Notes under the pieces: model-generated
Database searches by the model: none
Seen by the model: the letters and a program-made list of their open reading frames with translations, nothing else
What the model was told of the DNA's origin: nothing
From: a virus
Taxonomy: Duplodnaviria > Caudoviricetes
Length of the DNA: 52,237 bases
Reading direction: 5' to 3' (one strand)
IMG/VR virus record: IMGVR_UViG_3300037184_000106
Coordinates: 1 to 52,237 of that record
Program-made: the position numbers and the translations under genes
In this document: in pieces, positions 2,442 to 51,211 of the stretch
Layout of the letters: each line of letters opens with the position of its first letter
Position numbering within the stretch: position 1 is the stretch's first letter

Positions 2442-5400
2442 TAGACACATTCGAATTAATCGACATAGATCTTCCCGTAGTTTCTACGGTCATGCATCTT
2501 GCAGATATTCATATCCGCCTAACCGATAGACATGGAGAATGGCGCGAGGTTTTCTCTAAAGTATATGAAGATGCCAAGAAACTACCAGAGAGTAGTATTA
2601 TTACTGTTCTAGGCGATGTTCTCCATGGAAAAGTGGACCTGTCGCCAGAAGCCGTTGAACTTTCCAGTGAATTCTTAAAGAACTTGGCCGATATTCGTCA
2701 TACTATTCTCGTTCCCGGAAATCATGATTGTTTGCTTACGAATAAAACGAGACTGGATAGTTTATCCCCAATCGTAAACAATCTAAATCATAAAAAGTTA
2801 CACTATCTTAAGAAGTCTGGACTATACGGAGTAGGTAATATATTGTTTAATAATATGAGCGTCTTTAATGACGTTACCAAATATCTGGACATAAGGAATA
2901 TATCTAAGAAGATTCAAAATACATTTGATTGTAAAGTTGCATTGTTCCATGGTGGGGTGCATGGATCATTAACCGACCTCGGATATTTGATCGAGAATAA
3001 GTTAGTACCAAGAGACTTCTTTGATGGCCACGACATAGTGATGCTGGGTGATATCCACAAAGCTCAAACATTCTTCATAGAAAAGACTATTCCAATAGAA
3101 GAGGTGGAAGAATATAAGCAGTTTAGTGGATGGGAAGTTACTGATATAGAAGTCGGTGTAAGTGCCAGAGCAACTAAAAAACAACCAATCTTCCGTTATC
3201 CCGGTTCGCTTGTAATGCAAAACCACGGCGAGTCTATAACTGGCCATGGTTACTCATTATGGAATATAAAAAATAGAACGTTCGAACATATTGAGATACC
3301 TAATGATCATGGTCATTTTACTATCAATATTGACGGAGGTAAATTGGTAACTGATATCACAAACATGCCTTCTAAGCCAAGGTTACGAGTTCAATATACG
3401 AACAGTGTGGCTACAGAAGTGAAGAAAATTGTAGCTGATGTTAAGGAAGATCGAACATTAGACGATTTAATCTATCTCAGAATGGATGGTGAGAACATTC
3501 AAGATAATATCACCGTAAAAAAAGTAAATAGTTTAAATTCTATTAGTGATGTAGAATATCAAAACAAACTTATCGAGGAATTTCTGAAAAAGAAATATCC
3601 TATGATGGATAACGATACATTAGAGGAAGTCTATAAGATCAGTAAAACTACAAACGAGAGTGTGGGTAAAGATGATAATAGCAGAAATATCCGCTGGAAA
3701 CCCATTAGGTTTGAGTTCTCGAATATGTTTTCATATGGTGAGAGTAACATAGTTGATTTTACCAAATTAAGTGACGTATATGGTCTATTCGCCGCGAACG
3801 CATCGGGCAAATCTTCGTTGATGGATGCACTCTGCTTTATCATTTTCGATAAGTCCGCTCGGGCATTCAAAGCAGCACACGTGATCAACACTCAAAAATC
3901 ATCGTTCTCGGGAAAATTTACGTTTGAAATTAATAGTGTCAAGTACGTCATTGAGAGAGACGGAATTAAAGATAAGAAGAATAACGTAAAAGTGAATGTA
4001 AAGTTCTATAAACTAGATGGAGATAAACAAGTATCTCTGAACGAGGAGGAACGTCGAAGTACCAATGAAGTCATTCGTAATTATCTTGGTTCATACGACG
4101 ATTTCATTTTAACATCCCTCGCCATTCAAGGAAATCAGGGCTCAATCATCGATGAAGGTCAGACAGAATTAAAGGAATTACTGGCTAAGTTTATTGGATT
4201 GACACTATTTGATCGATTGGTAAAGGAAGCAAGTGATAAAGTCAAGGAAACTGCCGGGGCGATTAAGGTGTTCAATAAGGAAGACAATGCCAAGAAGATT
4301 ATAGATATGACGGCAGAGATTCCGGTACTAGAAGAGAAACTCGTTTGGTTAAACGAAGAAAAAGAGAAGTTATCCAACGGAGTGAAAGAATTGGAACAAT
4401 TTATCGTTCATAATAATTCATTAGTTGTTAAACTCGAAAACGTTCCTGAGGATCTTGGACCGCTTATACAACAAAAGAAAAGTATACAAGAAAAAATTCA
4501 ATTGTATAAAGATAGGCAGCAAATAGCGGAAAAAGAAATATCATCAATTAGTGTTTTGATAGAATCATATGATAAAGAGCTAACATCTTATGACATTCCA
4601 GAACTTTTGAAAAAACACGAAATATACGTCAAGCTAGGTGAACAATATAGTAAACTTTCTAGAGAAATGGATCGTTATCGTATTATAATAGAAGAAAAAC
4701 TCAAAAAATTGGCTCATCTTGATGAACACAAGTATGACCCAAACTGTCCGTATTGTATGAACAATGTTTTTGTAAAGGATGCGATCACCACTCGTGAAGA
4801 GTTAAAAAGTGATAAGACATCCGTATCGACTCTACGTGCCTCTATACAGGACGTAGATGAGAAGATGAAAGAATTGGAGAAAGGATCGTTGGACTACAAA
4901 TATTCACTCTCTATAACACAAAAAAGAAATCCACTCGCCGCCAAGAGATCTAGAATGGAATTGGCAGCTATCAGTTACATAGACGAGGTTTCCAATAATC
5001 AGAATAGATTAAAAATAGTCGATGAACAAATTGAACTCTATGAAAGATCTAAAGAAGTGATAGAAAAAAATCATGCAATTGAACGAGGAAATGACGAAAT
5101 AAGAAAGAAGCTGTTTACTACCAATTATGAGTTGAAGACTGTTACGTCTAAATACATGGAAATCTATGGTAGGAAAATATCATTAGTTGACCGTATTTCC
5201 TTATTGAAATCACAGTCCGAAAAAATAGAGAATCTTGAGCATGAGCATGCCGCATATGAATATTATTTAGACGCGGTTGGTCGAGATGGAATTCCTTATC
5301 ATATCATTTCAGATGTTATTCCTCAAATTGAACAAGAGGTAAACAATATTCTGTATCAAATAGTTGAATTCGGGGTAGCTATCGAGACTGATGGAAAGAA

Positions 5401-5728
5401 CGTAAATATATTTATAAAGTACGAAGATCGTAAATGGCCATTGAAAATGTCATCTGGAATGGAAAAATTTATTTGTGCATTAGCACTTCGGGTCGCGTTA
5501 ATAAATATAAGCAATCTTCCAAGACCAAATTTCCTTGTTATTGACGAAGGCTGGGGAGCACTTGATGCAAATAATATGGCTATGGTTCATGCATTGTTTG
5601 ATTACCTTAAGAGTAGTTTTGATTTCATTATCGTAATAAGCCACTTAGATGCAATGCGTGACATGGTGGATAAACAATTAGAGATTAGGAAGGAAAACGG
5701 ATTCTCTAAGATCGATAATACTGCTTGA
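2438..5728 (+). CDS. Fused SbcD/Mre11 nuclease - SbcC/Rad50 ATPase (T4 gp47-gp46-like recombination nuclease)
   Basis: Phosphoesterase motifs ADIH, GDVLH, GNHD, FHG, GDIH; Walker A AANASGKSS; coiled coil with CPYC zinc hook; signature SGME; Walker B FLVIDEG; IISH. Confidence 0.92.
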   Translation: MIDTFELIDIDLPVVSTVMHLADIHIRLTDRHGEWREVFSKVYEDAKKLPESSIITVLGDVLHGKVDLSPEAVELSSEFLKNLADIRHTILVPGNHDCLLTNKTRLDSLSPIVNNLNHKKLHYLKKSGLYGVGNILFNNMSVFNDVTKYLDIRNISKKIQNTFDCKVALFHGGVHGSLTDLGYLIENKLVPRDFFDGHDIVMLGDIHKAQTFFIEKTIPIEEVEEYKQFSGWEVTDIEVGVSARATKKQPIFRYPGSLVMQNHGESITGHGYSLWNIKNRTFEHIEIPNDHGHFTINIDGGKLVTDITNMPSKPRLRVQYTNSVATEVKKIVADVKEDRTLDDLIYLRMDGENIQDNITVKKVNSLNSISDVEYQNKLIEEFLKKKYPMMDNDTLEEVYKISKTTNESVGKDDNSRNIRWKPIRFEFSNMFSYGESNIVDFTKLSDVYGLFAANASGKSSLMDALCFIIFDKSARAFKAAHVINTQKSSFSGKFTFEINSVKYVIERDGIKDKKNNVKVNVKFYKLDGDKQVSLNEEERRSTNEVIRNYLGSYDDFILTSLAIQGNQGSIIDEGQTELKELLAKFIGLTLFDRLVKEASDKVKETAGAIKVFNKEDNAKKIIDMTAEIPVLEEKLVWLNEEKEKLSNGVKELEQFIVHNNSLVVKLENVPEDLGPLIQQKKSIQEKIQLYKDRQQIAEKEISSISVLIESYDKELTSYDIPELLKKHEIYVKLGEQYSKLSREMDRYRIIIEEKLKKLAHLDEHKYDPNCPYCMNNVFVKDAITTREELKSDKTSVSTLRASIQDVDEKMKELEKGSLDYKYSLSITQKRNPLAAKRSRMELAAISYIDEVSNNQNRLKIVDEQIELYERSKEVIEKNHAIERGNDEIRKKLFTTNYELKTVTSKYMEIYGRKISLVDRISLLKSQSEKIENLEHEHAAYEYYLDAVGRDGIPYHIISDVIPQIEQEVNNILYQIVEFGVAIETDGKNVNIFIKYEDRKWPLKMSSGMEKFICALALRVALINISNLPRPNFLVIDEGWGALDANNMAMVHALFDYLKSSFDFIIVISHLDAMRDMVDKQLEIRKENGFSKIDNTA

Positions 5729-8872: not shown

Positions 8873-9236
8873 GTATATTTTAGCTATTGCGGAACGAGTG
8901 AGTCATCGATATCCTTCTGCAAACGGCCAGTGCGAATTCATGGCAAATGATTTAGTAAAAGAACTTAAAAAGATAGGCGTTCGATCTAATCATGTAATAG
9001 GAAACTTTCATCTAGATGAACCCGCTGCATTTGAATATGTGAGTGAAGAAGACGAAAATAATAAGGACGATTATGTTGTCAATCATGATTGGGTGAATGT
9101 TGAAGGGAAAATTCTTGATATTTCAGCCAAACAATTTAGAAAATATGTAACAGATCCAATTCCCGATATAGTGTTTATCGGATGTGAAGATCCGTTATCC
9201 AACCATTATGAGGAACTAAGTCATGCCACCCAATAA
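8841..9236 (+). CDS. Small transglutaminase/papain-like protein (YunG-like Cys-His-Asp)
   Basis: GQC...NHDW...GKILDISAKQF pattern. Confidence 0.55.
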   Translation: MNLTDNLPQHEYILAIAERVSHRYPSANGQCEFMANDLVKELKKIGVRSNHVIGNFHLDEPAAFEYVSEEDENNKDDYVVNHDWVNVEGKILDISAKQFRKYVTDPIPDIVFIGCEDPLSNHYEELSHATQ

Positions 9237-10917
9237 TACTACATCTACTTTAAACATAAAAGACGTTATCCGATCTGAGTACGCGAAGTGTGTTAAAGAT
9301 CCCGTTTATTTTATGAAAAAATATGTGAAGATTCAGCATCCGATGCGAGGAACCATTCCATTTACAACTTATGCTTTTCAAGATAAGACTCTTTCCGAAT
9401 TCATGAAGCATCGGAATAATATTGTGCTTAAGTCGAGGCAAATGGGTATTACAACATTAGTCGCAGCATATTCTCTTTGGTTAATGATCTTTCATAGTGA
9501 CAAAGATATACTCTCCTTATCTATTACACAAGAAACGTCGAAAGCGATTGTAACTAAAGTTAGATTTGCAAACGACAACTTACCGGGATGGTTAAAAGTT
9601 CCTGCTATTGAAGATAATCGTCTATCACTAAAATTGAAAAATGGATCGATGATAAGGGCAGTATCTTCTGCCAGTACATCTGGTAGATCGTCAGCTCTGT
9701 CACTTCTAATTCTGGACGAAGCTGCATTCATAGAAGATGCTGGAGGTATCTGGTTGTCATCTCAATCAGCATTATCTACTGGTGGTAAGGCTATTATCCT
9801 TTCAACTCCGAATGGAGTAGGGAATTTCTTTCATAAAATGTGGTTGGAAGCTGAAGAAGGATCTGGACCAGATAATTTTAATCGAATTACACTCCCTTGG
9901 TATTTAAATCCAGAACCAGATCGTGGACAGGCTTGGAGAGACGGCCAAGAAAAATTACTTGGTGCAAAAGGTGCAGCACAAGAATGTGATTGTGTATTCA
10001 GTACGTCGGGTAATACTGTTATTGAAATTCCAATATTGGAATGGTATGAGAGTAAAGAACGCGGAGGAACACAAGTAAGAGATCCTATTGAAAATAGATA
10101 TATTGATCGTGGATTATGGATTTATGAATATGCTCAAGCAGGTAGAAGTTATATGGTAGCTGCTGACGTTGGCCGTGGAGATTCTACTGACTTTTCTGCT
10201 GCTCAAGTAATAGATATAGAATCTCTTGAGCAAGTTGCAGAGTATATGGGAAAAATACCAACAAAAGATTTCGCTCGGCTTCTCATGACATTGGCAACCG
10301 AATACAATAATGGCTTGTTAGTTATAGAAAATGCTAACGTGGGATGGGCAGTTCTACAGGAAGTAATCGATAAAAGTTATCCAAATTTGTTTTATAGTTC
10401 AGCTGATATGCAATATGTGGATGCAGAATTACAGATGACAAATAAAATAAATTCGCTTGAGAAGAAGTTGGTTCCGGGGTTTACTACATCTAGTAAGTCT
10501 AGGCCACTGCTTATTTCTAAACTTGAAAGCTATTTTAGGAACAAAGAAGTCATTGTCCACTCCAGTAGATTGATCGGTGAGCTAAAAGTCTTTATTTGGC
10601 ACGCAACCGGCACCAGTAGTAGTAAAGCTGAAGCAATGAAGGGTTATAATGATGATCTTGTAATGGCCATGGCGATTGGACTCTGGATCAGGGATACTGC
10701 TTTGAGATTGAGATCTGAATCGGATGTTGTGGTCAAGGCAATCATTGACAGAATAGGAAGCTCTGCTACCGCTACCGATAAAGAAAAGATGCGTCCATTA
10801 TTAGTTCCCGGCGCTCATAATCCTTACGGGATTTATGACGATCCATGGAAGATGAAGATGGGCAATTATGGAGAAGAAGACCTTCGGTGGCTAATTAATG
10901 CACCAGCACGAAAATAA
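9223..10917 (+). CDS. terL: Terminase large subunit (T4 gp17-like)
   Basis: LKSRQMGITT Walker A, LLILDEAAF Walker B, STPNG, nuclease motifs ADVGRGDSTDFS and NDDLVMA. Confidence 0.95.
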   Translation: MPPNNTTSTLNIKDVIRSEYAKCVKDPVYFMKKYVKIQHPMRGTIPFTTYAFQDKTLSEFMKHRNNIVLKSRQMGITTLVAAYSLWLMIFHSDKDILSLSITQETSKAIVTKVRFANDNLPGWLKVPAIEDNRLSLKLKNGSMIRAVSSASTSGRSSALSLLILDEAAFIEDAGGIWLSSQSALSTGGKAIILSTPNGVGNFFHKMWLEAEEGSGPDNFNRITLPWYLNPEPDRGQAWRDGQEKLLGAKGAAQECDCVFSTSGNTVIEIPILEWYESKERGGTQVRDPIENRYIDRGLWIYEYAQAGRSYMVAADVGRGDSTDFSAAQVIDIESLEQVAEYMGKIPTKDFARLLMTLATEYNNGLLVIENANVGWAVLQEVIDKSYPNLFYSSADMQYVDAELQMTNKINSLEKKLVPGFTTSSKSRPLLISKLESYFRNKEVIVHSSRLIGELKVFIWHATGTSSSKAEAMKGYNDDLVMAMAIGLWIRDTALRLRSESDVVVKAIIDRIGSSATATDKEKMRPLLVPGAHNPYGIYDDPWKMKMGNYGEEDLRWLINAPARK

Positions 10918-10968: not shown

Positions 10969-12879
10969 ATGGCTGAAGTTAAAACAAAAGATCTGTTTAG
11001 TAGACTGAAAAAGATGTTTTCGACCGATGTAATCGTTCGAAACGTTGGTGGAAAAAAATTGAAGGTTATTGATACTGATGAGCTTCAGTATGCAACTGAT
11101 AGAAATAGCCTTCGAGATAGATATAATCGTCTACGAAGTTCTACATACAATCTTCACAATCGAGATATGTCAATGGCATATCAGGGCGCTCGGTTGGAAT
11201 TATTCCGAGACTATGATGTAATGGATATGGACCCAATTCTAGCTTCTGCATTGGACATTTATGCAGACGAATGTTTGGTTCCTAGCGAACTTGGTAAAGT
11301 TTTGACTATTCGGTCAAATAATGAAAATATTAAAAAAATACTGGAGAACTTATTCTATGACATCCTCAACATCGAATTCAACCTCTGGTCATGGACCAGA
11401 AACATGTGTAAATACGGAGACTTCTTTCTCCGTATGGAAATCTCTCCGGAATACGGTGTCTTCCTTGTACAACCGATTTCTCCTTACGAGCTTACTCGTA
11501 TCGAAGGTTCTGACCCCAATAACATCAATTATGTAAAATATCAACATGATGGTTTAGGTGGTGGAATGGAATATGAGAATTTTGAAATTGCCCATTTCAG
11601 ATTAATTTCAGACAGCAATTTTCTACCATATGGAAAGTCAATGGTGGAACCAGCCAGACGTGTCTGGAAGCAACTTAGCTTAATGGAAGATGCCATGTTA
11701 ATTCACCGTATCATGCGGGCTCCTGAAAAACGTATTTTCAAGATCGACGTGGGTAATATTCCTCCAGCAGATATTGACGCTGCAATGCAAAAGATTATAG
11801 CACAAGTAAAAAAGGTTCCGTACATTGATGAACGGACAGGTGACTACAATCTCCGTTTCAATTTAAATAATATGATCGAAGATTTCTATCTCCCTGTCCG
11901 TGGTGGAGATAGTGGAACATCGATTGATACTCTTCCCGGCATGGAATTTACTGGTATTGATGACTTGGAATACGTTAAGAATAAAATGATGGCGGCATTG
12001 AAGATTCCTAAAGCGTTCTTAGGATATGAAGAGGGAATATCGGGTAAATCTACGTTGGCGGCAGAAGACGTTAGGTTTTCCCGCACAATTGGTAGAATTC
12101 AAAGAATTCTTACTTCTGAATTGACCAAAATTGCAATCATCCATCTGTATGTTCAAGGCTATCAGGATGCTTCACTTGTTGATTTTGAACTTGAACTCAG
12201 TAACCCATCTACAATTTTTGAGAAAGAAAAGATTGAGATTTGGCAGGACAAAGTAAACGTTGCCAAAGATATGATGGAATCCGACCTATTTAGTCGTAAG
12301 TGGATATATAATCAGGTATTCAATATTTCGGAAGATGATGTAGAAGAACTTGAACAAGATGTTATTCGGGACAAAAAGGAAATGTGGAGACGAACACAGA
12401 TTTCTGAAGAAGGAAATGATCCTATGATCAGTGGACAAAAATCTGGTGAAGATGGATTATCAGATGTTGGTGGAGGAGCTGAAAGTGGGGGCGGGGAACC
12501 TGATCTTCCTGACCTCGGAAGTGAATCCGGTGGAGGAGAGGCTGGTGGTGAAGAGAGTGGTGGTCCAGAACTTCCTCCGTTAGAAGAAGACAAAGAAAGG
12601 AAACGTGATCAAACCGGAAATAAAGAGAAGTACACCAATACTTTCGATAAAACACGTGGAGAAGATCCATTGGGAGATATGACTAATTCAGAGAAATCTA
12701 AATCAGATAGATCTCTTGACAGAAAAACACGTAAATCTGCAATGTCAATGAGCGAAGATTTAAGAAGTATAAAACGAACTCTTTCTAAACGATATGATAG
12801 AAATAAAAAGGCGGTGATTATTGAACAGAAATCTCTACTTGATGAATCTAATCTTATCAGCAGTGACAAACCACTGTAA
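10969..12879 (+). CDS. gp20: Portal protein (T4 gp20-like) with acidic Gly-rich C-terminal tail
   Basis: LMEDAMLIHRIMRAPEKRIFKIDVGN, EDFYLP, IDTLPG, ALKIPK motifs. Confidence 0.95.
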   Translation: MAEVKTKDLFSRLKKMFSTDVIVRNVGGKKLKVIDTDELQYATDRNSLRDRYNRLRSSTYNLHNRDMSMAYQGARLELFRDYDVMDMDPILASALDIYADECLVPSELGKVLTIRSNNENIKKILENLFYDILNIEFNLWSWTRNMCKYGDFFLRMEISPEYGVFLVQPISPYELTRIEGSDPNNINYVKYQHDGLGGGMEYENFEIAHFRLISDSNFLPYGKSMVEPARRVWKQLSLMEDAMLIHRIMRAPEKRIFKIDVGNIPPADIDAAMQKIIAQVKKVPYIDERTGDYNLRFNLNNMIEDFYLPVRGGDSGTSIDTLPGMEFTGIDDLEYVKNKMMAALKIPKAFLGYEEGISGKSTLAAEDVRFSRTIGRIQRILTSELTKIAIIHLYVQGYQDASLVDFELELSNPSTIFEKEKIEIWQDKVNVAKDMMESDLFSRKWIYNQVFNISEDDVEELEQDVIRDKKEMWRRTQISEEGNDPMISGQKSGEDGLSDVGGGAESGGGEPDLPDLGSESGGGEAGGEESGGPELPPLEEDKERKRDQTGNKEKYTNTFDKTRGEDPLGDMTNSEKSKSDRSLDRKTRKSAMSMSEDLRSIKRTLSKRYDRNKKAVIIEQKSLLDESNLISSDKPL

Positions 12880-18630: not shown

Positions 18631-20235
18631 ATGTCAGCAGATATCAAACAACTACTCAGCGAGACCATGAATCCCATGGTCCAGCTCATGGCCCAAACTC
18701 GCGGCCTTGTAAATAAATGGGATAAGACTGGATTGCTTGAAGGCATCAAGACCGATATGGAAAAATCCCATATGGCCATTTTGCTTGAAAACCAAGCAAA
18801 GCAGTTAATCGACGAAGCTACCCGTACAGGTACTTCTGCAAATTCCGAACAATGGGCCGGTGTGGCACTCCCACTCGTCCGTCGTGTGTTCGCCGAAATT
18901 GCTGCTAAGGAGTTCGTATCCGTGCAGCCAATGAACCTTCCATCAGGTCTCGTGTTCTATCTAGACTTCAAATATGGAACAAATCAAGCGGGCAAACCTG
19001 CTTTCTTGAACCAGTCCCTCTTCGGTGGTACTGGCACAAAGCTCGGTTCAACTGACTCAGCCGTTAATGGTTTGTATGGTCAGGGTCGTTTCGGTTATAC
19101 TATCAATGATCAGACGTTGGCTGGTGCAGCGTCTGTCACATCTGTCGCTTCATGGCAGGCAGCAAACTTCGTGGACGCTCTTTCGGGTTCCGCAGACGCA
19201 GGTCAACTGTTCTACTTGTCTGTGGACTTGACTGGTACAAGCTTCGATTTCAATGGTGTTCGCGCCTTCACGGTGTCGGGCTCCGGTATCGTTGACTTCT
19301 ATCCAGCATTCACGACCACAGCTGGTCAGTCAGTAACATTCATCGTTTCGGGTTCGGCTTTGTCCAATCCAACGGTCACGGTTGAATATCAAGTTCAGCC
19401 TTCCGATCAGTCACGTGGTGACTTCGAAGATAAGGGTTCTCCAATTCCTCCACAGGGATTGAATGCTGATATCGGTATCCCCGAAATCAACTTGGAACTC
19501 AAGAGCGAAGCAATCGTTGCGAAGACCAAGAAGCTCAAGGCCGTCTGGACTCCAGAATTGGCACAAGACTTGAACGCATATCACTCAATCGACGCAGAAG
19601 CGGAATTGACTGCATTGCTCTCGGAATACGTTTCAATGGAAATCGACCTCGAAATCCTTGACATGTTGATCGTCAATGCCCCACAGGCAACAACTGAATT
19701 CTGGTCTGCACGTATTGGATCTGAATTTAATCCACAACTCGGAAAATTCGTTGATACGGCAACAAACCGTACAGCTTATGTTAAGAGCACGTGGTTCCAA
19801 ACTCTCGGCAACAAGATCCAAAAGGTCTCGAACAAGATTCACCAGTTGACACTGCGTGGTGGTGCAAACTTCCTCGTTGTATCTCCTGACGTTGCTACCA
19901 TCATCGAATCCATCCCCGGTTTCACGACCAACACAGATGGTGATATGGCAAAGTTTGCAATGGGTGTCGCAAAGGTCGGAGCCCTCTCCAACCGTTGGAC
20001 GGTTTACAAGAACCCATACATGACGGACAACGTAATGCTCGTCGGATTCCGTGGAACAAACTTCCTCGAAACCGGTGCAGTGTACGCTCCATATATTCCT
20101 CTCATCCAGACTCCTCTGGTATACGATCCCGTGAACTTCACGCCACGGCGTGGTGTCATGACTCGTTACGCCAAGAAGATGCTCCGTCCGGAATTCTACG
20201 GAAAGATCATCATCGGCAATCTGAACGAGGTATAA
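18631..20235 (+). CDS. gp23: Major capsid protein (T4 gp23-like)
   Basis: LLENQ, PLVRR, VQPMNLPSGLVFY, KLKAVWTPELAQDLNAYH, YAPYIPL, PRRGVMTRYA; SD AAGGAG. Confidence 0.97.
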   Translation: MSADIKQLLSETMNPMVQLMAQTRGLVNKWDKTGLLEGIKTDMEKSHMAILLENQAKQLIDEATRTGTSANSEQWAGVALPLVRRVFAEIAAKEFVSVQPMNLPSGLVFYLDFKYGTNQAGKPAFLNQSLFGGTGTKLGSTDSAVNGLYGQGRFGYTINDQTLAGAASVTSVASWQAANFVDALSGSADAGQLFYLSVDLTGTSFDFNGVRAFTVSGSGIVDFYPAFTTTAGQSVTFIVSGSALSNPTVTVEYQVQPSDQSRGDFEDKGSPIPPQGLNADIGIPEINLELKSEAIVAKTKKLKAVWTPELAQDLNAYHSIDAEAELTALLSEYVSMEIDLEILDMLIVNAPQATTEFWSARIGSEFNPQLGKFVDTATNRTAYVKSTWFQTLGNKIQKVSNKIHQLTLRGGANFLVVSPDVATIIESIPGFTTNTDGDMAKFAMGVAKVGALSNRWTVYKNPYMTDNVMLVGFRGTNFLETGAVYAPYIPLIQTPLVYDPVNFTPRRGVMTRYAKKMLRPEFYGKIIIGNLNEV

Positions 20236-42324: not shown

Positions 42325-42881
42325 GATTTGAAAGTATTTTCGTAAACGGCTTTAATTGCATTTATGCCGTTAGCATTAATTTCACGTGTACCGATCCCGG
42401 CAAAGTTTTCTGTTAGAAGTGGTGTATATGGATAGTTAAAAAAGACATCCTCATCAAAAGAGAACCTATACCACGTTCCTTCGTTCTGTTCATAGAAACA
42501 AATTGGTTTATTATTGTTTATAGCCATCTGTACAGCCCACCCGGTTCCTCCATTAACCAGTTTTTTTGATCCTTTAATGAATGTACCTATTGGAAATATG
42601 CACTCGGAATTTTTTACCTGAAACCAGTTTCTTGCAATAAGATTCCTCACGTAACGTTTATCTACCACATAATTCCAAGGACGTTTTAAAATTATTGAGG
42701 CAGATTCTGCTTGTTCGGCACCTTCATCCAATTCGGTCGAAGTAAGTATTTGACGGTTCTTTGAATATTGAGTGTGACCAAGGAAAGAATAACCAATGGA
42801 TTTAACTCCGTATTTATATCCTTCATTTTCCCACGTCATGTCTGCACCCGGACAACCTCCACTGTGATTAACATAGTTCAT
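42321..42881 (-). CDS. SLOG-superfamily (DprA/MoCo-carrier-like) nucleotide-binding protein
   Basis: Start ATG 42881; HSGGCPGAD, RNWFQV, GGTGWAVQMA, FAGIGTR. Confidence 0.65.
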   Translation of the reverse strand: MNYVNHSGGCPGADMTWENEGYKYGVKSIGYSFLGHTQYSKNRQILTSTELDEGAEQAESASIILKRPWNYVVDKRYVRNLIARNWFQVKNSECIFPIGTFIKGSKKLVNGGTGWAVQMAINNNKPICFYEQNEGTWYRFSFDEDVFFNYPYTPLLTENFAGIGTREINANGINAIKAVYENTFKS

Positions 42882-42890
42882 TTTGACATA

Positions 42891-42919
42891 AGTGTCATAT
42901 AAAATGTTCGTTTTGTCAA
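42891..42919 (-). promoter_or_regulatory. sigma70-like promoter
   Basis: TTGACA-17 nt-GACACT; ATG 9 nt downstream. Confidence 0.55.
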
Positions 42920-42963
42920 GAAAAATCCCTAGAATCGTGATACTTATCATCTAGGAGAATATT

Positions 42964-43683
42964 ATGACAAAAGTATGTACTAAATGTAGAACCGAAAGAT
43001 CTATTGAAGAATTCAACAATTGGAGTCGTGGAAAAGATGGAAAGTTTCACCAATGTAAAATATGTTGTTACGAGAGATATAAGAATTATAGAAAAAATAA
43101 TCGGAGTAAGTTACTTCTATATGGAAAAAATTATTATAAAACATATTACAAGAATAATAAAGAAAGTGTCATAGCAAGTCATAAGAAAGATTACGAACAA
43201 AATAAAGAAAAATGGAAATTGACCAGAAAAAAATATTATGAAGAGAATAAAAGTAGATTATTAAAAATTCAAAAAGAGAGATTGAAAGACCCAGTGGTGA
43301 GAGTTAATAGATTAAAAAGATCAGCTATCCGTGAGAAAGAAAGATGTAAAGAGGATATAAATTTCAAACTTAAGAAATATTTGCGAACACGTGTTTGGAA
43401 CGCACTTAAAGGAAGAGTCAAATCAAAAAGAACACGAGAACTCCTTGGAGCAACAATAGAAATTATAAAAGACCATTTACAATCGAAGTTTGTCGAAGGA
43501 ATGTCGTGGGAAAATTATGGAAAATGGCACGTTGACCATATTATTCCTTGTGATTCATTTGATTTATCAATAGAAGAAAATCAAAAGAAATGTTTTCATT
43601 ATACAAATTTACAGCCTCTCTGGGCTATAGATAATATACTAAAAAGTAATAAATTAGTCAGTCCATTGACCTATTCTTTTTAA
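42964..43683 (+). CDS. HNH-type homing endonuclease
   Basis: CTKC...CKIC; WHVDHIIPC...CFHYTNLQPLWA.DN..KSNK; SD AGGAG. Confidence 0.85.
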   Translation: MTKVCTKCRTERSIEEFNNWSRGKDGKFHQCKICCYERYKNYRKNNRSKLLLYGKNYYKTYYKNNKESVIASHKKDYEQNKEKWKLTRKKYYEENKSRLLKIQKERLKDPVVRVNRLKRSAIREKERCKEDINFKLKKYLRTRVWNALKGRVKSKRTRELLGATIEIIKDHLQSKFVEGMSWENYGKWHVDHIIPCDSFDLSIEENQKKCFHYTNLQPLWAIDNILKSNKLVSPLTYSF

Positions 43684-44291: not shown

Positions 44292-44473
44292 TGTTCTTTT
44301 TTTCTAAAATCACTGGCTCTATAGGATGACCATCCAAGTGCGAATATCTGATTAGGTGGTAGTTTTTCAATTTCCTCTCTAATACTATCATTTCCACTCG
44401 ACCACCATTCTTTTGCAGCTTCTCCGTTCCATCTAGCTATAATTGACAATTCTTCTTCGGTAAAATTTTTCAT
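44288..44473 (-). CDS. Small hypothetical protein
   Basis: 61 aa, ATGA-coupled to neighbours. Confidence 0.5.
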   Translation of the reverse strand: MKNFTEEELSIIARWNGEAAKEWWSSGNDSIREEIEKLPPNQIFALGWSSYRASDFRKKEQ

Positions 44474-44904
44474 CCGAATGATGCCTCTACATTGAAGATT
44501 CCTTTAAGATGTTCGATTGTTGACTTGATTTCCACTGCCTCTGGAGCATCTGTTTTACAGATAACTCGAAATTGACTATTTCCATATCTGTCATATTTCT
44601 CTGGACGGATCAATCTGTCAGCTTCTTTCTCCGTTACAATACCTTCTTCAACAGCTGATTTAAGTTCTTCCTCAGTCATAAGTTTTTCGGCATATTTCTC
44701 ATCAATATAGGTATCCACAGCATACGCAACATCGATAGTGAACAGATCTTCGGATTTTTTAGTTGATTCGGCAAGTTTCAATATATTGTTAATTAGAGCA
44801 TGAACCATATTGACCGAGCCATCGTCAACGGACATGAATACTTGACTACTGGAATTAGTAATCAAGTCAACGAAACTATGATATGGAATTGAGAATGTAT
44901 ACAT
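44470..44904 (-). CDS. ITNSS-motif family protein, copy 5
   Basis: MYTFSIPYHSFVDLITNSSSQVF. Confidence 0.75.
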   Translation of the reverse strand: MYTFSIPYHSFVDLITNSSSQVFMSVDDGSVNMVHALINNILKLAESTKKSEDLFTIDVAYAVDTYIDEKYAEKLMTEEELKSAVEEGIVTEKEADRLIRPEKYDRYGNSQFRVICKTDAPEAVEIKSTIEHLKGIFNVEASFG

Positions 44905-44906
44905 AA

Positions 44907-45434
44907 TTAGTTATACGTCGCTTCGATTTCAAACAATGCGGTGAGATCGGACAACACTTTGGCCGCAGCAACCGCAGATTTGTTGGTCTTGTCCTTTACC
45001 GTAACACGAATTTGAGATCTTGGATACCCTTCACCATCGTCATCATTAAATGACCACGTTTCCAGCTCTTCGATCTTGCCAGTCAAATCTTCACGTTCCT
45101 TACTAGAACCATCAGGAAGCTTTTCTAACTCATTCGAATATTTTTCGATAAGATCGTCGATTTCCTTTTTCTTTACCTTTATTTCTTTTTCGGTAAGAAA
45201 GACTTCATCGTACCCTTCATCAGTACAACTAAAAACAATTTCAAAATCAAAAAGTTCGTCAACCGTGTATGGGATATGATCTCCGGTAGGTTCCTTCTGA
45301 CCAGCATTAATTAAATCATTTACCAATTTCTTGATAGCTTTGACAGTGCTTTTATTTGCAGCAACGAAGATTTCGCTGCTTGAATTCGTAATAACGTCCA
45401 CGATACTATGGACTGGAATGAGTAATGTTTTCAT
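44907..45434 (-). CDS. ITNSS-motif family protein, copy 4
   Basis: Start ATG 45434: MKTLLIPVHSIVDVITNSSSEIF. Confidence 0.75.
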   Translation of the reverse strand: MKTLLIPVHSIVDVITNSSSEIFVAANKSTVKAIKKLVNDLINAGQKEPTGDHIPYTVDELFDFEIVFSCTDEGYDEVFLTEKEIKVKKKEIDDLIEKYSNELEKLPDGSSKEREDLTGKIEELETWSFNDDDGEGYPRSQIRVTVKDKTNKSAVAAAKVLSDLTALFEIEATYN

Positions 45435-45444
45435 GTTTTTAGTT

Positions 45445-45864
45445 TTATTGTTCACATTGTTCCGCCGATGTTGATACACCAAATTCTTCCAGCAACTTGG
45501 CAATTTTCTTTAGACTTGCATCAGTGCCTTTCTTAGCAGTGATCTTAAGAACATTCCATTTCTTTGTATATTCGTCGTCAATTTCGATGTTGTTCTTATC
45601 AAAAAATCTACTCGCCGCAGCCCTGTCAGGAAATTCTTTTTCTTCACGATCATAATTGTCACCGACTGGATATCTAACCCAATAGGCGAGCGATACATCG
45701 AATAATTCATCGACCGTTTGAGTCGATCCAGTAGCCTTGAGAATAGCGGTAAGAACGCTTTTAGCAGCCGTGACTGTTTGTTCCGTAGCCTCAACATACA
45801 GTTCGGTAGAACTGTTGGTAATTACGTCTATCACGGAATGAATAGGTATAATGATTGATTTCAT
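45445..45864 (-). CDS. ITNSS-motif family protein, copy 3
   Basis: MKSIIIPIHSVIDVITNSSTELY. Confidence 0.75.
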   Translation of the reverse strand: MKSIIIPIHSVIDVITNSSTELYVEATEQTVTAAKSVLTAILKATGSTQTVDELFDVSLAYWVRYPVGDNYDREEKEFPDRAAASRFFDKNNIEIDDEYTKKWNVLKITAKKGTDASLKKIAKLLEEFGVSTSAEQCEQ

Positions 45865-45875
45865 AGAGATTAAAA

Positions 45876-46184
45876 TTATCTATCGGTTTCAGCGGTAATA
45901 TCAAACAATCCACTTAGATTGCTTAAAGTCATCGCTGCTTCCTTTATTTTACTTAGGTTCGGAACATCGCCATCTGATTTGGGTGTTACAACAACTCTGT
46001 TACGATGTAGACTTATTACAAACAAGTCATCGAATTTATACGTTGACCCGGCCCCGTCTAGAATATTATCTACCAATTCTTTTACCGAACTAACCGTGCC
46101 CTCATCGGCATGAATATACACTTCAGTAGAACTGTTTGTGATCATGTTAACGAAACTATGGATCGTAAGATTTAAACTTTTCAT
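45876..46184 (-). CDS. ITNSS-motif family protein, copy 2
   Basis: Start ATG 46184: MKSLNLTIHSFVNMITNSSTEVY. Confidence 0.75.
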   Translation of the reverse strand: MKSLNLTIHSFVNMITNSSTEVYIHADEGTVSSVKELVDNILDGAGSTYKFDDLFVISLHRNRVVVTPKSDGDVPNLSKIKEAAMTLSNLSGLFDITAETDR

Positions 46185-46185
46185 A

Positions 46186-46632
46186 TTAACAAGATCGTTC
46201 TCCGAGTGTATATGCACCGATCAGTCCAGACAATGATTTTGCTGCTTTAACTGCTTCTTTATTCGTTTCGTCTGTGGCTTTAACCTCAACGACACATGTG
46301 TAATATTCACTTTCCTCGGTTGGAAAGTTCCACTCATCAATCTCGTCGTCAGTTTCATCAGCTTCATAACGCTTCTCCAATTCAGCCTTTTTAGCGGTGA
46401 TTTCTTTCTTGGTCAGGAATATTTCCTTACCCGTTGGATCATCACAGGCATAAACCAGACGAAAGGTGAATAGATCATCAGGAATTACACTGCTACCGGC
46501 AGCAGACAGTATATTAGCAGTAACTTTCTTTAGAGCAGTGACAGTCTCGCTTGTTGCAGCGATGAATGCCTCGGAGGACGAATTCGTGATAAGATCAACG
46601 AATGAATGTATAGGAACGAGTATTGGTTTCAT
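46186..46632 (-). CDS. ITNSS-motif family protein, copy 1
   Basis: MKPILVPIHSFVDLITNSSSEAF. Confidence 0.75.
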   Translation of the reverse strand: MKPILVPIHSFVDLITNSSSEAFIAATSETVTALKKVTANILSAAGSSVIPDDLFTFRLVYACDDPTGKEIFLTKKEITAKKAELEKRYEADETDDEIDEWNFPTEESEYYTCVVEVKATDETNKEAVKAAKSLSGLIGAYTLGERSC

Positions 46633-47194: not shown

Positions 47195-47413
47195 TTAATT
47201 CTCTATTGCTTTATCATTAGCTCGACGCAACGCTTCCAATTTTCTCGTTGTACGCTCACAATCGGCTGGAACTTCCTCTACGGTATCTGCTCTATCTTGA
47301 CCAGTATGTTTTGCATCTATAATAGACCGAGCTTCGTCTAAGGAATTCGCCTTCAAAAATTCCTCCCAACCCCAACCACCCGGTCTATCTAGATATGCCC
47401 GAAAATGTTTCAT
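47195..47413 (-). CDS. Small hypothetical protein, possibly frameshift-truncated
   Basis: 72 aa; a coiled-coil continuation exists in the +1 frame to 47128. Confidence 0.5.
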   Translation of the reverse strand: MKHFRAYLDRPGGWGWEEFLKANSLDEARSIIDAKHTGQDRADTVEEVPADCERTTRKLEALRRANDKAIEN

Positions 47414-48417
47414 TTGAACGACATTTCATTCTTGAAGAACCACGCCTTCGCGGCCTTCGTAATTTCACCACCGGCTTTCTTGATATCCAAACCAGAAGCC
47501 TTGGCAGTATCGGATTCTTCCTTTTCCACGTCGGCAACAATCCATTTTATAAATTCGCCGATTGAAGTACGATCCAACTGTTTGCCAGCTTCACGAAGTT
47601 TGTCAATGCCTTGACGGCAACGATTCTCCGTAACAGTCTTTTCGGCAAATTCCCGTTGAGAGTTGACTAACTCAACATCGACGGCAGCAAGGGTCTTGAC
47701 CTTGGAAGAGGAATGTTTCACTCCCTTAACCTTGAAATAGAACTGTGGATCTTCCCATCCGGGAGTAATACACTTCCAAACAATTCCTTCGCCGATACCA
47801 TCAACACCCATTGCCTTGGCAACAGGACAGGATTCCTCGACTTTGATCGTCAGTTCAGACAACTTGTTCTGGGACAACTCAGGACGATTAAAATCAATAT
47901 CAATGGTTTCAGTCTGATAATCGTAGATATTGTAAACACCAATAGATTCATATTTGACCTTGCTGACAAACTCACGGGGAAGCCATTTACCATCAACAAC
48001 AATGTTAAAGATAACAAATCGCTTGGATAGCTGAGCTAAAGCAACAGTGGGCTGAATACTGCCTCCGCACCACTCACCGTAAATGATCACTTCATTGAAT
48101 AGAGGAAAGTTCTTGATGAAACTCAAATCCTTGTCACCAGTCAGAAAATGACGAACAAATCCAGCATTGTCTTTCTCCAACGTGAGAATGGTATCCCGAG
48201 ACTGAAACCATAGTTCAGAAGTCGTGGCGTTCCAACAAATAGCTGCATTCGTTCCATGCAATTTGACCGTTCCTTCGTAGGTCAAAACGGGCAAAACTTT
48301 TGTGTGATCATAAATTGGATCTCCACCATTATCCACACCAATATGGCGGGCGGCACAAGTAACCTTGTGAATGGCATTTCGGAATTGTTCGATCTCTGGA
48401 TAGCGAATATGTCTCAT
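47410..48417 (-). CDS. Rnl2-family RNA ligase
   Basis: YPEIEQF, motif I TVKLHGTNA, QSR, IYGEWCG, FVIFNI, GEGIVW, FKVKG. Confidence 0.85.
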   Translation of the reverse strand: MRHIRYPEIEQFRNAIHKVTCAARHIGVDNGGDPIYDHTKVLPVLTYEGTVKLHGTNAAICWNATTSELWFQSRDTILTLEKDNAGFVRHFLTGDKDLSFIKNFPLFNEVIIYGEWCGGSIQPTVALAQLSKRFVIFNIVVDGKWLPREFVSKVKYESIGVYNIYDYQTETIDIDFNRPELSQNKLSELTIKVEESCPVAKAMGVDGIGEGIVWKCITPGWEDPQFYFKVKGVKHSSSKVKTLAAVDVELVNSQREFAEKTVTENRCRQGIDKLREAGKQLDRTSIGEFIKWIVADVEKEESDTAKASGLDIKKAGGEITKAAKAWFFKNEMSFK

Positions 48418-48427
48418 AATTTGGCCC

Positions 48428-48455
48428 ATAATGACTTTTTATTGTCAGTTGTCAA
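48428..48455 (-). promoter_or_regulatory. sigma70-like promoter heading the RNA ligase-ITNSS operon
   Basis: TTGACA-16 nt-CATTAT; ATG 48417 is 10 nt downstream. Confidence 0.55.
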
Positions 48456-48780
48456 GCACAATTTCGGAATTAATGCTATGTTGTTTAATTTCAAAATTGA
48501 GCAGAACCGGATCTCTCATGTAAGGCGAAGAGAGTTGAAGAGTTCCGTGGAGATATTCCTGTTCAGGATCTGACATAATCACTAGAACATGCTTAAGATA
48601 ACATCCTCGTTTCTGAAGATCGACCATATAATCATCGATCATCCGATAAAGTTTATCTACAGTTTCCTTTCCCAGTCGTTCTCCAAAGGCGAATTCCGTT
48701 AGAAAAGAAATAACCGATCTTCGAATATAAACCATATAGCGCCGAACACCTACTGTATTAAGTGTGCCGTCGTATTTCAT
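48445..48780 (-). CDS. Stand-alone tail-sheath C-terminal-domain-like mini-protein
   Basis: Start ATG 48780; LNTVGVRRYMVYIRRSV vs sheath LDRINVRRLLIALKKFI; YMVDLQKR vs YLEGVQQR; LHGTLQL vs MYGQIWL; VLLNFEI vs IILDFNI. Confidence 0.65.
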   Translation of the reverse strand: MKYDGTLNTVGVRRYMVYIRRSVISFLTEFAFGERLGKETVDKLYRMIDDYMVDLQKRGCYLKHVLVIMSDPEQEYLHGTLQLSSPYMRDPVLLNFEIKQHSINSEIVLDN

Positions 48781-48781
48781 C

Positions 48782-49207
48782 TTATTGGAGTCTCTTTGCT
48801 GCTGCGGAAAATGACATCGATGTAATATCCATTCCCCAATCGCCAATGTCTCCCCAAACTTGTAATTCCCACGTGTTCCATTTATTCTTCTCGAATACAT
48901 GCTCACCGTCATCTCCACGTTCAATGTTATTTGGGTAATTCGACACTATCATATGCCCCTGTGGATATGGTTCGTATATGGAACCATTGGCAAACATAAA
49001 TTTTGAATTCTTGGTGATCTTGTAAAACTTTTTCGGAATCATGTATGGATACCATGTAGCATGCAATGATTCGGCTAGACTCTTTCCCTTCATAAACAAC
49101 CTGTTGGCAATTTCGATTCGTCTAGTATGGCTATCTCGCGAGCGGGATTCTTTCTTACTGGAGAAGACGATCCCATCGTCAGAAGTATATGTCGTGGTAG
49201 TTTTCAT
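48782..49207 (-). CDS. Hypothetical protein
   Basis: 141 aa, N-terminal TYTSDDGIVF. Confidence 0.55.
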   Translation of the reverse strand: MKTTTTYTSDDGIVFSSKKESRSRDSHTRRIEIANRLFMKGKSLAESLHATWYPYMIPKKFYKITKNSKFMFANGSIYEPYPQGHMIVSNYPNNIERGDDGEHVFEKNKWNTWELQVWGDIGDWGMDITSMSFSAAAKRLQ

Positions 49208-49476
49208 TGGAAATATACTTTCTCCATTCGAGGCGCAAACATACGAAACTTCTCTCCGGGATATGCTTCGTCAACACCTTTAATACCGGGGTACTTAAAA
49301 TAAAGCTCTACTTTGTACGTTCTATTCTCCGTAACGTATAACCTATACAACTCAATTGCTCTACGAACCGCTTCGGATCTATCCATACACCCCCATTCTT
49401 CAATTACTCTTAAAGCATATTCTGTACTCTGTGGTACAGTTGCTGTAATTTCTGTTGTATATAATTCTTCACTCAT
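49204..49476 (-). CDS. Small protein with ribbon-helix-helix-like motif
   Basis: ITATVP...MDRSEAVRRAIELY. Confidence 0.45.
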   Translation of the reverse strand: MSEELYTTEITATVPQSTEYALRVIEEWGCMDRSEAVRRAIELYRLYVTENRTYKVELYFKYPGIKGVDEAYPGEKFRMFAPRMEKVYFQ

Positions 49477-51083
49477 GGTATCTGCACTGTAGAGGGTTTT
49501 TGTGATTTGTCAACCCAAATCCACTTGGAATGCCCGCAATCCCAAATTCGGTCGAATCCATTGACCTTCATGTTTTCCCATTCGGAGAGGGCGGGGTCGA
49601 AAAACGTCAATTTCTTTTCTAGCTTGGCTTTCTGCCAGTTGACATTGTTTTCTAGAACATCATATGATTCAATAATATATTGATAATCAGGAGCTAGGTT
49701 TTCAACAAATGTGAATCCTAGTTTCAAAAATGATTCACCAGAGAAATATCTTCTGTCAGTATAAGCAGCTACGATTTCTGGTTTGAAGTGTTTAATGAAA
49801 TATGAAAACAGTTTCGACATTCCACCTACAACGGTGACACCTAATAAAGAACAATATCTACTGATTTCCCAATGTTCCTTCTCTGTAAATTTAGAAGACG
49901 AAAATGTCATCGCCGCAATCAACCGATCTTCATCGAATAGTCCCAACCGAATCATGGCAGTATCATTGCCATGAAGACTATTTTGCTCTAGAAACTCAGA
50001 TTTTTGGATTGGATCTATTTCTTTTATAGAGCATTTTCTGGCATAAATAATTCGGTTCTCTTTCAGCAGGAGTGTTTTTAATATAGACTTGACTATATTC
50101 TTACAATGATTCCAGTCATTTTCAAATATATGAACGAGCCGGATACCTTTCATAGCACACAACTTAGTCTTATTTAAGTGATAATTCTTGTTTCTTGTAC
50201 CTGACACTTCGGAATGATAATAAATACCGTCCGCTTCAATTGCTATGTTTTTTCCGGGAATGTATATGTCTAATTCTAACGGACTAAGCACCGCTCGATT
50301 ATTGATTACAATTGGTTCACTTGGAAGTAACTGTTTAACATAGTCAACTATTTCTGTTTGAAATATTGACATCGATGCATCACATACCGAACATCGAAGA
50401 GCGTAACGAGTCAGATCAAAATCTTGTTCTTTATTACATCGATTACATTTAAACGTATATTTTTTATTGAACTGGACGGTTATACCGTCATATTCGTCTA
50501 TCGAGAAACACGGTGTAAAATTCTTGAATCGTTCAGATTCAATGAATTTTTTGAACATGGCTTTTTTATGACTTTGTTTGAAAGTGCTGCTGTTGATCTG
50601 TTCTTTTCTGTCTCCTTGCATGGAAGCATGTGGAACACCGTATTTCTTCAAACATGTTTCTTCATATTTCTTACGACATTCATCTGTCTTCTTGTAATTG
50701 TCTGCCCCATATCGCTCCAAACATGTTTGTTTCATTTGATCGATATTATTATATCTCTCATCTCCATATCTTTCAAGTTTGGTGGCTTTAGTTTTATCAA
50801 CGAATTCATCGGTCTGGCTAAACCATGCCTTTCCGTGTCGTTCTATCATCGTTAGAGTGAGTTTTTCCTTTGTTTGAGGATTCACTGCCATTGGATGGCC
50901 ACCATATTTAGAATCAAATGCTTTGGCTACACCAATGCGATTTTTCTCTTTCACAGCTGGATCGTTTACTGCACATTTTTTACAGCAATAAGTCTTTTCT
51001 TTTCGCCGTTCACAAGTAAATGGTTGTTTACACGTGGGACATGTCTTGTGTAGCGTATTATTTGGATCTTTAGGTCTAGCCAT
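49473..51083 (-). CDS. Hef-like homing endonuclease (zinc ribbon, ERYG repeats, DUF559-like nuclease, C-terminal GNAT/Mom-like region)
   Basis: Start ATG 51083; CPTC; ERYG/KKYG repeats; ELDIYIP..NIAIEADGIYYH; YARKC, VVGGMSKLFSYF, YTDRR, IWDCG. Confidence 0.8.
   Translation of the reverse strand: MARPKDPNNTLHKTCPTCKQPFTCERRKEKTYCCKKCAVNDPAVKEKNRIGVAKAFDSKYGGHPMAVNPQTKEKLTLTMIERHGKAWFSQTDEFVDKTKATKLERYGDERYNNIDQMKQTCLERYGADNYKKTDECRKKYEETCLKKYGVPHASMQGDRKEQINSSTFKQSHKKAMFKKFIESERFKNFTPCFSIDEYDGITVQFNKKYTFKCNRCNKEQDFDLTRYALRCSVCDASMSIFQTEIVDYVKQLLPSEPIVINNRAVLSPLELDIYIPGKNIAIEADGIYYHSEVSGTRNKNYHLNKTKLCAMKGIRLVHIFENDWNHCKNIVKSILKTLLLKENRIIYARKCSIKEIDPIQKSEFLEQNSLHGNDTAMIRLGLFDEDRLIAAMTFSSSKFTEKEHWEISRYCSLLGVTVVGGMSKLFSYFIKHFKPEIVAAYTDRRYFSGESFLKLGFTFVENLAPDYQYIIESYDVLENNVNWQKAKLEKKLTFFDPALSEWENMKVNGFDRIWDCGHSKWIWVDKSQKPSTVQIP
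49486..49513 (-). promoter_or_regulatory. sigma70-like promoter
   Basis: TTGACA-16 nt-TACAGT; ATG 9 nt downstream. Confidence 0.6.
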
Positions 51084-51103
51084 AGTTTTGGTTCTTATGC
51101 AGA

Positions 51104-51131
51104 ATAATAGACGAAAATACATAGATGTCAA
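51104..51131 (-). promoter_or_regulatory. sigma70-like promoter
   Basis: TTGACA-16 nt-TATTAT. Confidence 0.55.
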
Positions 51132-51211
51132 GAACTTTTTTTCCAACACTGTTTATTTATATTCGTGAGACAAATTACCAGCGATAACAATCAACTCGGA
51201 GATAAATAATT

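Follow-up and report, generated by a model that had tools for sequence, protein, structure and literature searches.

What keeps a short N-terminal segment constant in five neighbouring phage genes whose products have otherwise diverged? The question is raised by a tandem gene array in a 52,237-nucleotide (nt) stretch of DNA, referred to here at its full length as the window, which spans positions 1 to 52,237 of the IMG/VR virus record IMGVR_UViG_3300037184_000106, a linear fragment estimated to cover 26% of the genome of a large tailed phage. Each of the five proteins carries the motif HSxx(D/N)xITNSS(S/T)(E/Q) close to its N-terminus. On the strength of gene linkage in related phages and of a predicted complex, we propose, with about even confidence, that the five proteins are clients, most likely substrates, of a dedicated phage radical S-adenosylmethionine (SAM) enzyme. 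As judged from the predicted complex, the motif is most likely the docking site, and probably also the modification site, for this co-evolving enzyme.

The array and its protein family

Reading of the sequence confirmed the gene layout given in an initial annotation of the window, with five head-to-tail genes on the minus strand (Table 1) separated by 1, 11, 10 and 2 nt. The lengths of copies 2 and 4 are counted from ATG codons, the open reading frame (ORF) lister having placed their starts at a GTG (46217) and a TTG (45503), respectively. In a MAFFT alignment of the five products, copies 2 to 5 show pairwise identities of 32-42% to copy 1, and the invariant columns are M1, H9, S10, I15, T16, N17, S18, S19, V31, L54, F55 and D96. 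The elements initially described as shared, namely the N-terminal motif, a (D/E)(D/E)LF element and a C-terminal strand-helix, are present in all five copies, and the middle segment is indeed acidic and variable in length, with its extremes in copies 2 and 4; the alignment and the homologues described below thus bear out a diversified family in which a conserved scaffold carries a variable insert. The codons of the motif differ among the five copies, and both invariant Ser residues alternate between the TCN and AGY codon classes, which argues for selection on the amino acids and against recent copying. Judged from these codons, the identity of the motif across copies is due neither to chance nor to recent gene conversion.

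A profile built from the five copies retrieved 194 homologues, and a regular expression of the motif matched 116 of 120 homologues among the matches listed; of the four misses, two are window ORFs whose called start lies further downstream and two are proteins with Ala in place of Asp. In an alignment of 100 sequences, H9, S10, I15, T16, N17, S18, S19 and F55 are invariant, and in almost every member the motif is equally far from the N-terminus. With this alignment as query, an exhaustive HMMER search identified 2137 representative clusters at E≤1e-3, of which 1065 reach E≤1e-10; almost all are stand-alone proteins of about 95-195 amino acids (aa). Only 16 of the 111 inner branches of the family tree have good support, a resolution too poor for dating the duplications in the window; within these limits, lineage-specific duplications are frequent and the family evolves by birth and death.

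Besides proteins of the kind found in the window (S-type), many related arrays contain a second kind of member, the HLG-type, which has the same N-terminal segment and first helix as the S-type, followed by a variable insert and a conserved C-terminus that ends the protein, (G)xILIxSxxDN(S/T)IP(Y/F)...RxH(L/I/M)G. HLG-type proteins are 116-320 aa long, and their profile recovers 1987 proteins at E≤1e-3, S-type members included; in some HLG-type members that retain TNSS, the position of His9 is occupied by Gln or Asp. The two types are also joined in single polypeptides, in either order (P0349, 332 aa; P0242, 400 aa; P0278, 399 aa). The second copy of the motif is internal in these three fusion proteins, so that a position at the N-terminus is not required; each fusion is a one-member cluster, for which read-through or an assembly error is possible. 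A dedicated search for long fusions (325-2000 aa) returned one S+HLG fusion only and no fusion to a radical SAM protein, which is weak evidence by the tool's own caveat.

Family loci were found only six times in 185,579 species genomes, in every case on short contigs of metagenome-assembled genomes, and 162 stretches in IMG/VR match the family. In 50,697 GenBank phage records, tblastn searches with copy 1, an HLG-type protein and the radical SAM enzyme gave no match, and no cultured carrier phage was found among them. The family is large and unnamed, and almost confined to uncultured phages. None of the five copies scored above 17.3 bits in Pfam-A, where the cutoff is 33.1; the best PHROGs v4 match had an E-value of 9e-4, to a family of unknown function and across 31 residues; NCBIfam 20 gave no match for copies 1 and 3, the two of the five that were scanned; and a precomputed Pfam domain is present in 0 of 240 homologues among the matches listed by the S-type and HLG-type profile searches. 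Profile searches of the PDB with the S-type and HLG-type alignments returned nothing below an E-value of 0.27, and the ESM Atlas returned unnamed viral clusters only, with scores up to 0.87. By these comparisons the family is new to curated libraries, and the initial statement that no described family accounts for the motif holds for Pfam, PHROGs, NCBIfam and the PDB profile search. The listings and abstract openings returned by a full-text literature search contained no account of a module made of a radical SAM enzyme and a client array.

Two further observations may be recorded here. A homologue of 132 aa (P0038) is called 'phage terminase Nu1 subunit' by one source, a name that nothing in this analysis supports. 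A likeness of the motif to the phosphate-1 hairpin of the acetate and sugar kinase/Hsc70/actin (ASKHA) fold, the phosphoribosyl pyrophosphate (PRPP) loop and the cleavage site of S-adenosylmethionine decarboxylase (AdoMetDC) was dropped, having received no support from any tool.

Linkage to a radical SAM gene in related phages

Two sets of loci were compared. The first was seeded with the family and comprised 80 loci, dereplicated to 35 groups (34 from IMG/VR plus the window), in which ORFs were called and searched with the family profile. The arrays are conserved in relatives, with at least two copies in 74 of the 80 loci, and one cluster of radical SAM proteins is encoded within 4 kb of the array in 29 of the 35 groups. 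In mapped loci the radical SAM gene comes straight after the array on the same strand, and the usual gene order is one HLG-type member, one to five S-type members and the radical SAM gene. The second set was fetched with the radical SAM protein alone (n=80) and dereplicated at 85% identity to 59 groups. At least one family member is encoded on the same strand within 6 kb of the radical SAM gene in 79 of the 80 loci and 58 of the 59 groups; 28 groups contain both HLG-type and S-type members, 20 S-type only, 10 HLG-type only, and 1 none. In 48 groups the family members are upstream of the radical SAM gene, in 9 they are downstream of it, and in 1 they flank it on both sides. Copies per radical SAM gene range from 1 to 6, and exactly one member is present in 16 of the 59 groups. 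Hence, an array with S-type members only, like that of the window, is common, and the minimal module consists of one member and one radical SAM gene. The two nearly complete records that lack a radical SAM gene beside their S-type genes carry one elsewhere (G002, 83% complete, E 2.8e-91; G004, 84% complete, E 8.7e-126), and the remaining two records without any such gene are fragments, 14% and 5% complete.

The partner enzyme is about 300 aa long, and the CxxxCxxC motif (C50, C54, C57) is invariant in 25 sequences. Pfam family PF04055 matches all 7 of the radical SAM proteins tested, at 22.1-38.6 bits, with 3 of the 7 above the cutoff of 29.5. By this combination of the cysteine motif and PF04055, the sequence of the partner qualifies it for the radical SAM superfamily. 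No Cys beyond the three cluster ligands is invariant in the 25 sequences, and the 7 enzymes scanned against Pfam gave no match to SPASM/twitch domains or to the recognition element (RRE) of peptides that are made by the ribosome and modified after translation (RiPPs), their matches being restricted to PF04055 and one weak match to Fer4_12. The nearest solved relatives by sequence are all remote (Tes, 39 bits; CteB, 27 bits; SuiB, 26 bits; viperins, about 21 bits), and matches to NCBIfam are far below cutoff (NF038283, at 27-29 bits versus 180 bits). The radical SAM gene is itself split in two in L054 and L060, with an inserted gene of neighbour cluster c1 between the pieces; the c1 representative that was scanned (394 aa, L060:8378-9562) gave a match to homing endonucleases (E 3e-24, phrog_314), and two radical SAM pieces are seen also in L128 and L164.

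The linkage bears directly on a reading, contained in part in the initial annotation, in which the proteins would act independently of any radical SAM enzyme, for example in host interaction or anti-defence, or as a hetero-oligomer formed through the N-terminal strand. Such a role would be consistent with the window array, which retains every invariant residue with no radical SAM gene within 52 kb, with the hypervariable, acidic inserts and the birth-and-death evolution of the family, and with the low confidence of the motif in monomer models (see below), which is also compatible with strand exchange between copies. Against it, wherever the available sequence is long enough, linkage to the radical SAM gene is nearly universal, and a hetero-oligomer is not required in the 16 of 59 groups that hold a single member. 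We therefore regard a function independent of the enzyme as decidedly unlikely.

The position of the arrays is informative in another respect, as they are located in the replication/nucleotide module, away from the head genes. In larger phages the module is found amid genes for helicase, Sak4, primase, a MazG/HD-like nucleotide hydrolase, exonuclease and nucleotidyltransferase, RNA ligase being a further gene of this setting, and no recurrent protease, transporter or exporter was seen among the array neighbours in the mapped loci. T4 internal proteins have a common N-terminal sequence, and the near-constant distance of the motif from the N-terminus, together with the tandem, diverged genes, would suit an analogous signal for virion or capsid targeting and cleavage. 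Arrays that lie next to a radical SAM gene in the replication/nucleotide module and not near head genes, motifs that are internal in fusion proteins, and a sequence kept unchanged in widely differing phages, a constancy that a phage-specific protease site would not require, leave such a signal with hardly any credibility.

A predicted complex and the role of the motif

In an AlphaFold2 (AF2) model of copy 1, computed from the 100-sequence alignment, the predicted local distance difference test (pLDDT) score is 85.8, but falls to about 50 over residues 1-20, which contain the motif; outside the motif the model shows a helix-strand-strand-helix-strand-helix order. A minimal HLG-type protein (116 aa, 113-sequence alignment) was modelled with a pLDDT of 84.7 as strand-helix-strand-strand-helix-strand, and its motif forms a long connection of low confidence (54-64) from the first strand to the first helix. 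The most conserved segment is thus the least confident one in both monomer models, as expected if it becomes ordered on a partner. Foldseek returned 0 matches at E≤1e-3, for the S-type against the PDB and for the HLG-type against the PDB and BFVD. A SAM lyase fold for the HLG-type, suggested by template modelling scores (TM-scores) of 0.54 to 9lqe and 9gad, was rejected, the E-values being 0.28-0.30 and no sequence match being found.

A cognate pair from locus L001 was then co-folded, using the radical SAM enzyme (305 aa, 25-row alignment) and an S-type protein (142 aa, 125-row alignment) with the 4Fe-4S cluster and SAM included. The interaction prediction score from aligned errors (ipSAE) was 0.75, 0.74 and 0.66 (median 0.74), against 0.01 for the best of three controls, with a partner pLDDT of 75-77 and agreement between runs in at least 75% of contacts. 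When the tool was calibrated, the mark was reached by 58 of the 80 solved complexes and by 2 of the 110 pairs that were mismatched, figures that are only roughly applicable to a run with its own alignments and ligands. On the partner side, the predicted interface comprises residues 7-26, which include the whole motif, together with 30-41 in the first helix, 95, 103-106 and 133-136. Its enzyme side is formed by residues 18-27, the other contacts being made by conserved residues where the barrel strands end, and the closest predicted pairs join enzyme residues 20-26 to partner residues 7-14 in a strand pairing. Among the 54 enzyme residues of the interface are 17 of the 31 invariant columns (hypergeometric p 6e-7), including D43, Q90, N120, T122, N170, H172 and Y199. 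The co-fold hence supports binding between the radical SAM enzyme and the S-type protein through the motif. The cognate pair encoded in locus L005 is the one most similar to copies 1 and 4 of the window.

The mechanism that we propose follows the geometry of this model. The strand-HSxxDxITNSS(S/T)E-strand segment would act as a docking element, in which the first strand pairs with an N-terminal strand of the enzyme and, beyond it, the T-N-S-S-S-E loop extends to conserved polar residues around the barrel mouth. The loop would there offer Thr, Asn, three Ser/Thr and Glu residues, and the enzyme could abstract a hydrogen atom at or near Asn17, Ser18 or Ser19. A single enzyme would act on the 1-6 diversified protein substrates encoded alongside it, while the remainder of each protein, the hypervariable acidic insert included, would be free to diverge. 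The phage of the window would carry its radical SAM gene in the approximately 74% of the genome that lies outside the record, as relatives suggest. Somewhat more tentatively, and at rather less than even confidence, a minimal enzyme without SPASM domain may install an undescribed modification at the invariant Asn-Ser-Ser of a diversified family of small folded proteins, in a phage-specific post-translational modification system with a 'whole-protein RiPP' logic; the modified proteins, with their hypervariable acidic inserts, would then act early or in the middle of infection near the replication genes.

Several points weigh against this proposal. No radical SAM gene was found in the 52-kb window by six-frame hmmsearch (best E 1.9), and the same search found no HLG-type gene, so that for the window phage the association with the enzyme is drawn only from homology and extrapolation. 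What supports binding is a structure model, from a tool which warns that enzyme-substrate pairs are rarely informative; the enrichment of invariant enzyme residues partly restates that the interface is the active site, and the partner residues of the interface outside the motif are no more conserved than the rest of the protein (p 0.20). Covalent modification is what we infer for these proteins, and the enzyme has no auxiliary cluster, SPASM domain or recognizable RRE, unlike most radical SAM enzymes that modify proteins or peptides. No fold or sequence match hints at a downstream role of the S-type or HLG-type proteins. Finally, a non-covalent subunit role fits the same data.

In the last of these arrangements, the proteins would be accessory or specificity subunits whose motif loop completes or gates the active site of the enzyme for a small-molecule or nucleic-acid substrate, the paralogues conferring alternative specificity or regulation and remaining themselves unmodified. 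The linkage and co-fold data are also compatible with such subunits, as is the position of the module amid replication and nucleotide-metabolism genes; peptide maturases typically have auxiliary clusters and an RRE, which this enzyme lacks, and the second conserved site of the HLG-type, the C-terminal DN(S/T)IPY...HxG, looks pocket-like. However, copy numbers of 1-6 per enzyme, arrays that are S-only, H-only or mixed, and frequent lineage-specific duplications fit interchangeable clients better than a fixed multi-subunit holoenzyme, and a loop that fills the mouth of the barrel would compete with any other substrate. Interchangeable clients are therefore favoured, and a subunit role is considered unlikely, albeit the least so of the alternatives.

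The same evidence bears on the initial idea that His...Thr-Asn-Ser-Ser might be a self-processing site, acting by Asn cyclization or a Ser N-O acyl shift or in the manner of pyruvoyl or N-terminal nucleophile (Ntn) enzymes. Cleavage at Ser-Ser or before Ser occurs in some pyruvoyl enzymes, and all that speaks for such a reaction here is the make-up of the motif and the fact that it sits in a loop flanked by two strands. No match in sequence or fold to self-processing families was obtained (Pfam and PDB; Foldseek at E≤1e-3), Gln or Asp takes the place of His9 in certain HLG-type members that bear TNSS, and the conservation of the motif is already explained by the association with the radical SAM enzyme. 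No supporting evidence having emerged, self-processing is judged very improbable, and the proteins are better read as clients of the enzyme.

If they are, thousands of uncultured phages, with genomes from about 40 kb to more than 500 kb, carry an undescribed two-component module, in which a compact radical SAM enzyme is accompanied by 1-6 clients bearing one of the strictest short motifs in phage 'dark matter'. The clients would then represent a new substrate class, and probably a new chemistry, for radical SAM enzymology, and the module would provide a function-linked handle for more than 2000 unannotated protein clusters. Two profile families (S-type and HLG-type) and one radical SAM subfamily can be defined from the alignments used here.

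Genomic setting and comparison with known systems

The surroundings of the array in the window are listed in Table 1. An Rnl2-type RNA ligase, called from the sequence in the initial annotation, was confirmed (PF09414, 42.8 bits; phrog_548, E 2.3e-60). Genes of neighbour cluster c12 occupy the same place upstream of the array in L006 (343 aa, matching phrog_548 at E 1.3e-52) and L010 (377 aa), and the synteny around the window array is otherwise as in relatives. Co-transcription of the array with the ligase is plausible from their shared strand and tight spacing; promoter-like consensus matches at 48455-48428, upstream of the ligase, and at 45904-45875 (10/12), within the array, are no evidence either way. 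The 'sheath mimic' that had been placed in the same transcript matched no gene, the ORFs at 48445-48924, 48782-49207 and 49204-49476 having no Pfam or PHROG hit.

Table 1. Genes of the array and other features of the window, with window coordinates; E-values of copies 1 to 5 refer to hmmsearch with the family profile.
Feature	Coordinates	Strand	Length	Motif	Match or remark
Copy 1, S-type	46186..46632	-	148 aa	residues 9-21, HSFVDLITNSSSE, at 46570-46608	E 5e-40
Copy 2, minimal S-type	45876..46184	-	102 aa	HSFVNMITNSSTE, at 46122-46160	E 9e-33; variable insert nearly absent
Copy 3, S-type	45445..45864	-	139 aa	HSVIDVITNSSTE, at 45802-45840	E 2e-37
Copy 4, S-type	44907..45434	-	175 aa	HSIVDVITNSSSE, at 45372-45410	E 1e-43; longest acidic insert
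Copy 5, S-type	44470..44904	-	144 aa	HSFVDLITNSSSQ, at 44842-44880	E 4e-37
Rnl2-type RNA ligase	47410..48429	-			upstream of array, same strand; syntenic neighbour
HNH/homing-endonuclease-like protein	49473-51149	-	558 aa		phrog_3339, E 1e-107; Pfam DUF7487, 72.9 bits
Protein of 142 aa	43654-44082	-	142 aa		phrog_1238 (named phosphoheptose isomerase), E 2e-9; no Pfam hit
HNH/endonuclease VII-like gene	42964-43683	+			phrog_1035, E 7e-16
Protein of 209 aa	42321-42950	-	209 aa		DprA-like family phrog_768, E 3e-14; no Pfam hit
Major head protein	18631-20235				
Portal	10969-12879				
Large terminase	9223-10917				
SbcCD-like nuclease fusion	2438-5728	+	1096 aa		

The genes for the 142-aa and 209-aa proteins occupy the place downstream of the array where relatives have the radical SAM gene. 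Sequence of the array was also found in other sequencing runs, which are peat or soil metagenomes according to their records: the whole array is present in identical contigs in run X2 of a second study, and near-identical pieces occur in runs X3 and X4. One contig of run X3 joins position 42849 to 43661, so that 811 nt are missing and 35 other letters stand in their place, which points to a variant of the phage without the HNH/endonuclease VII-like gene, as would fit a mobile homing endonuclease. The gene for the 558-aa HNH/homing-endonuclease-like protein is the second of endonuclease type to lie within 8 kb of the array. In a peat metatranscriptome library (X13), two contigs of 151 nt have the same sequence as window positions 46047-46197 (copies 2/1) and 46351-46501 (copy 1), which is a weak hint of expression only and no evidence for transcription, since DNA carry-over is possible; parts of the stretch left uncovered in runs X3, X4 and X13 carry no meaning.

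Three kinds of single-cluster or protein-modifying radical SAM enzymes offer partial parallels to the proposed module. With viperin-like enzymes, the phage enzyme shares a length of about 300 aa, a single cluster and weak similarity (27-29 bits to NF038283 and about 21 bits to the viperins in the PDB), but it scores far under the NCBIfam cutoff of 180 bits, and viperins act on nucleotides, without an obligatory small-protein partner. PflA with GrcA/YfiD forms a pair of a glycyl-radical activase and a small radical-carrier protein, and there too a single-cluster radical SAM enzyme has as its partner a small protein, a conserved loop of which is offered to the active site; the invariant phage segment, however, contains no Gly, a motif like the radical loop RVxG[FY] is absent, no NCBIfam or Pfam match to activases or glycyl-radical domains was obtained, and the phage enzyme has several clients. 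The anaerobic sulfatase-maturating enzyme likewise works on a protein, at an N-proximal motif that contains Ser, whereas the (C/S)xPxR motif that it recognizes is absent here and the phage enzyme is without the auxiliary clusters of a SPASM domain.

The closest comparison is with radical SAM RiPP systems such as SCIFF/CteB and SuiA/SuiB. In both cases one radical SAM gene stands beside tandem, diverged genes with an invariant N-proximal segment (1-6 of them in the phages), the best solved matches of the phage enzyme core include CteB (27 bits) and SuiB (26 bits), and, as predicted here for the phage proteins, the partner is captured by strand pairing with a conserved segment led into the barrel. 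Tandem precursors beside a maturase, sharing a common recognition segment, are found in the relatives only (29 of 35 and 58 of 59 groups). The systems differ in that the phage partners are folded alpha/beta proteins of 95-320 aa with confident models, not short peptides; in that the conserved segment itself, and not a variable core, is predicted to lie at the active site; in that the 7 phage enzymes scanned have no SPASM/twitch domain, auxiliary cysteines or RRE match; and in that no leader protease or exporter recurs near the phage arrays and the system is almost phage-only. A single enzyme serving many tandem, diversified precursors is also known from the prochlorosins. The proposed system would represent a variation on the known logic of a radical SAM enzyme with tandem diversified substrates, applied here to small folded proteins.

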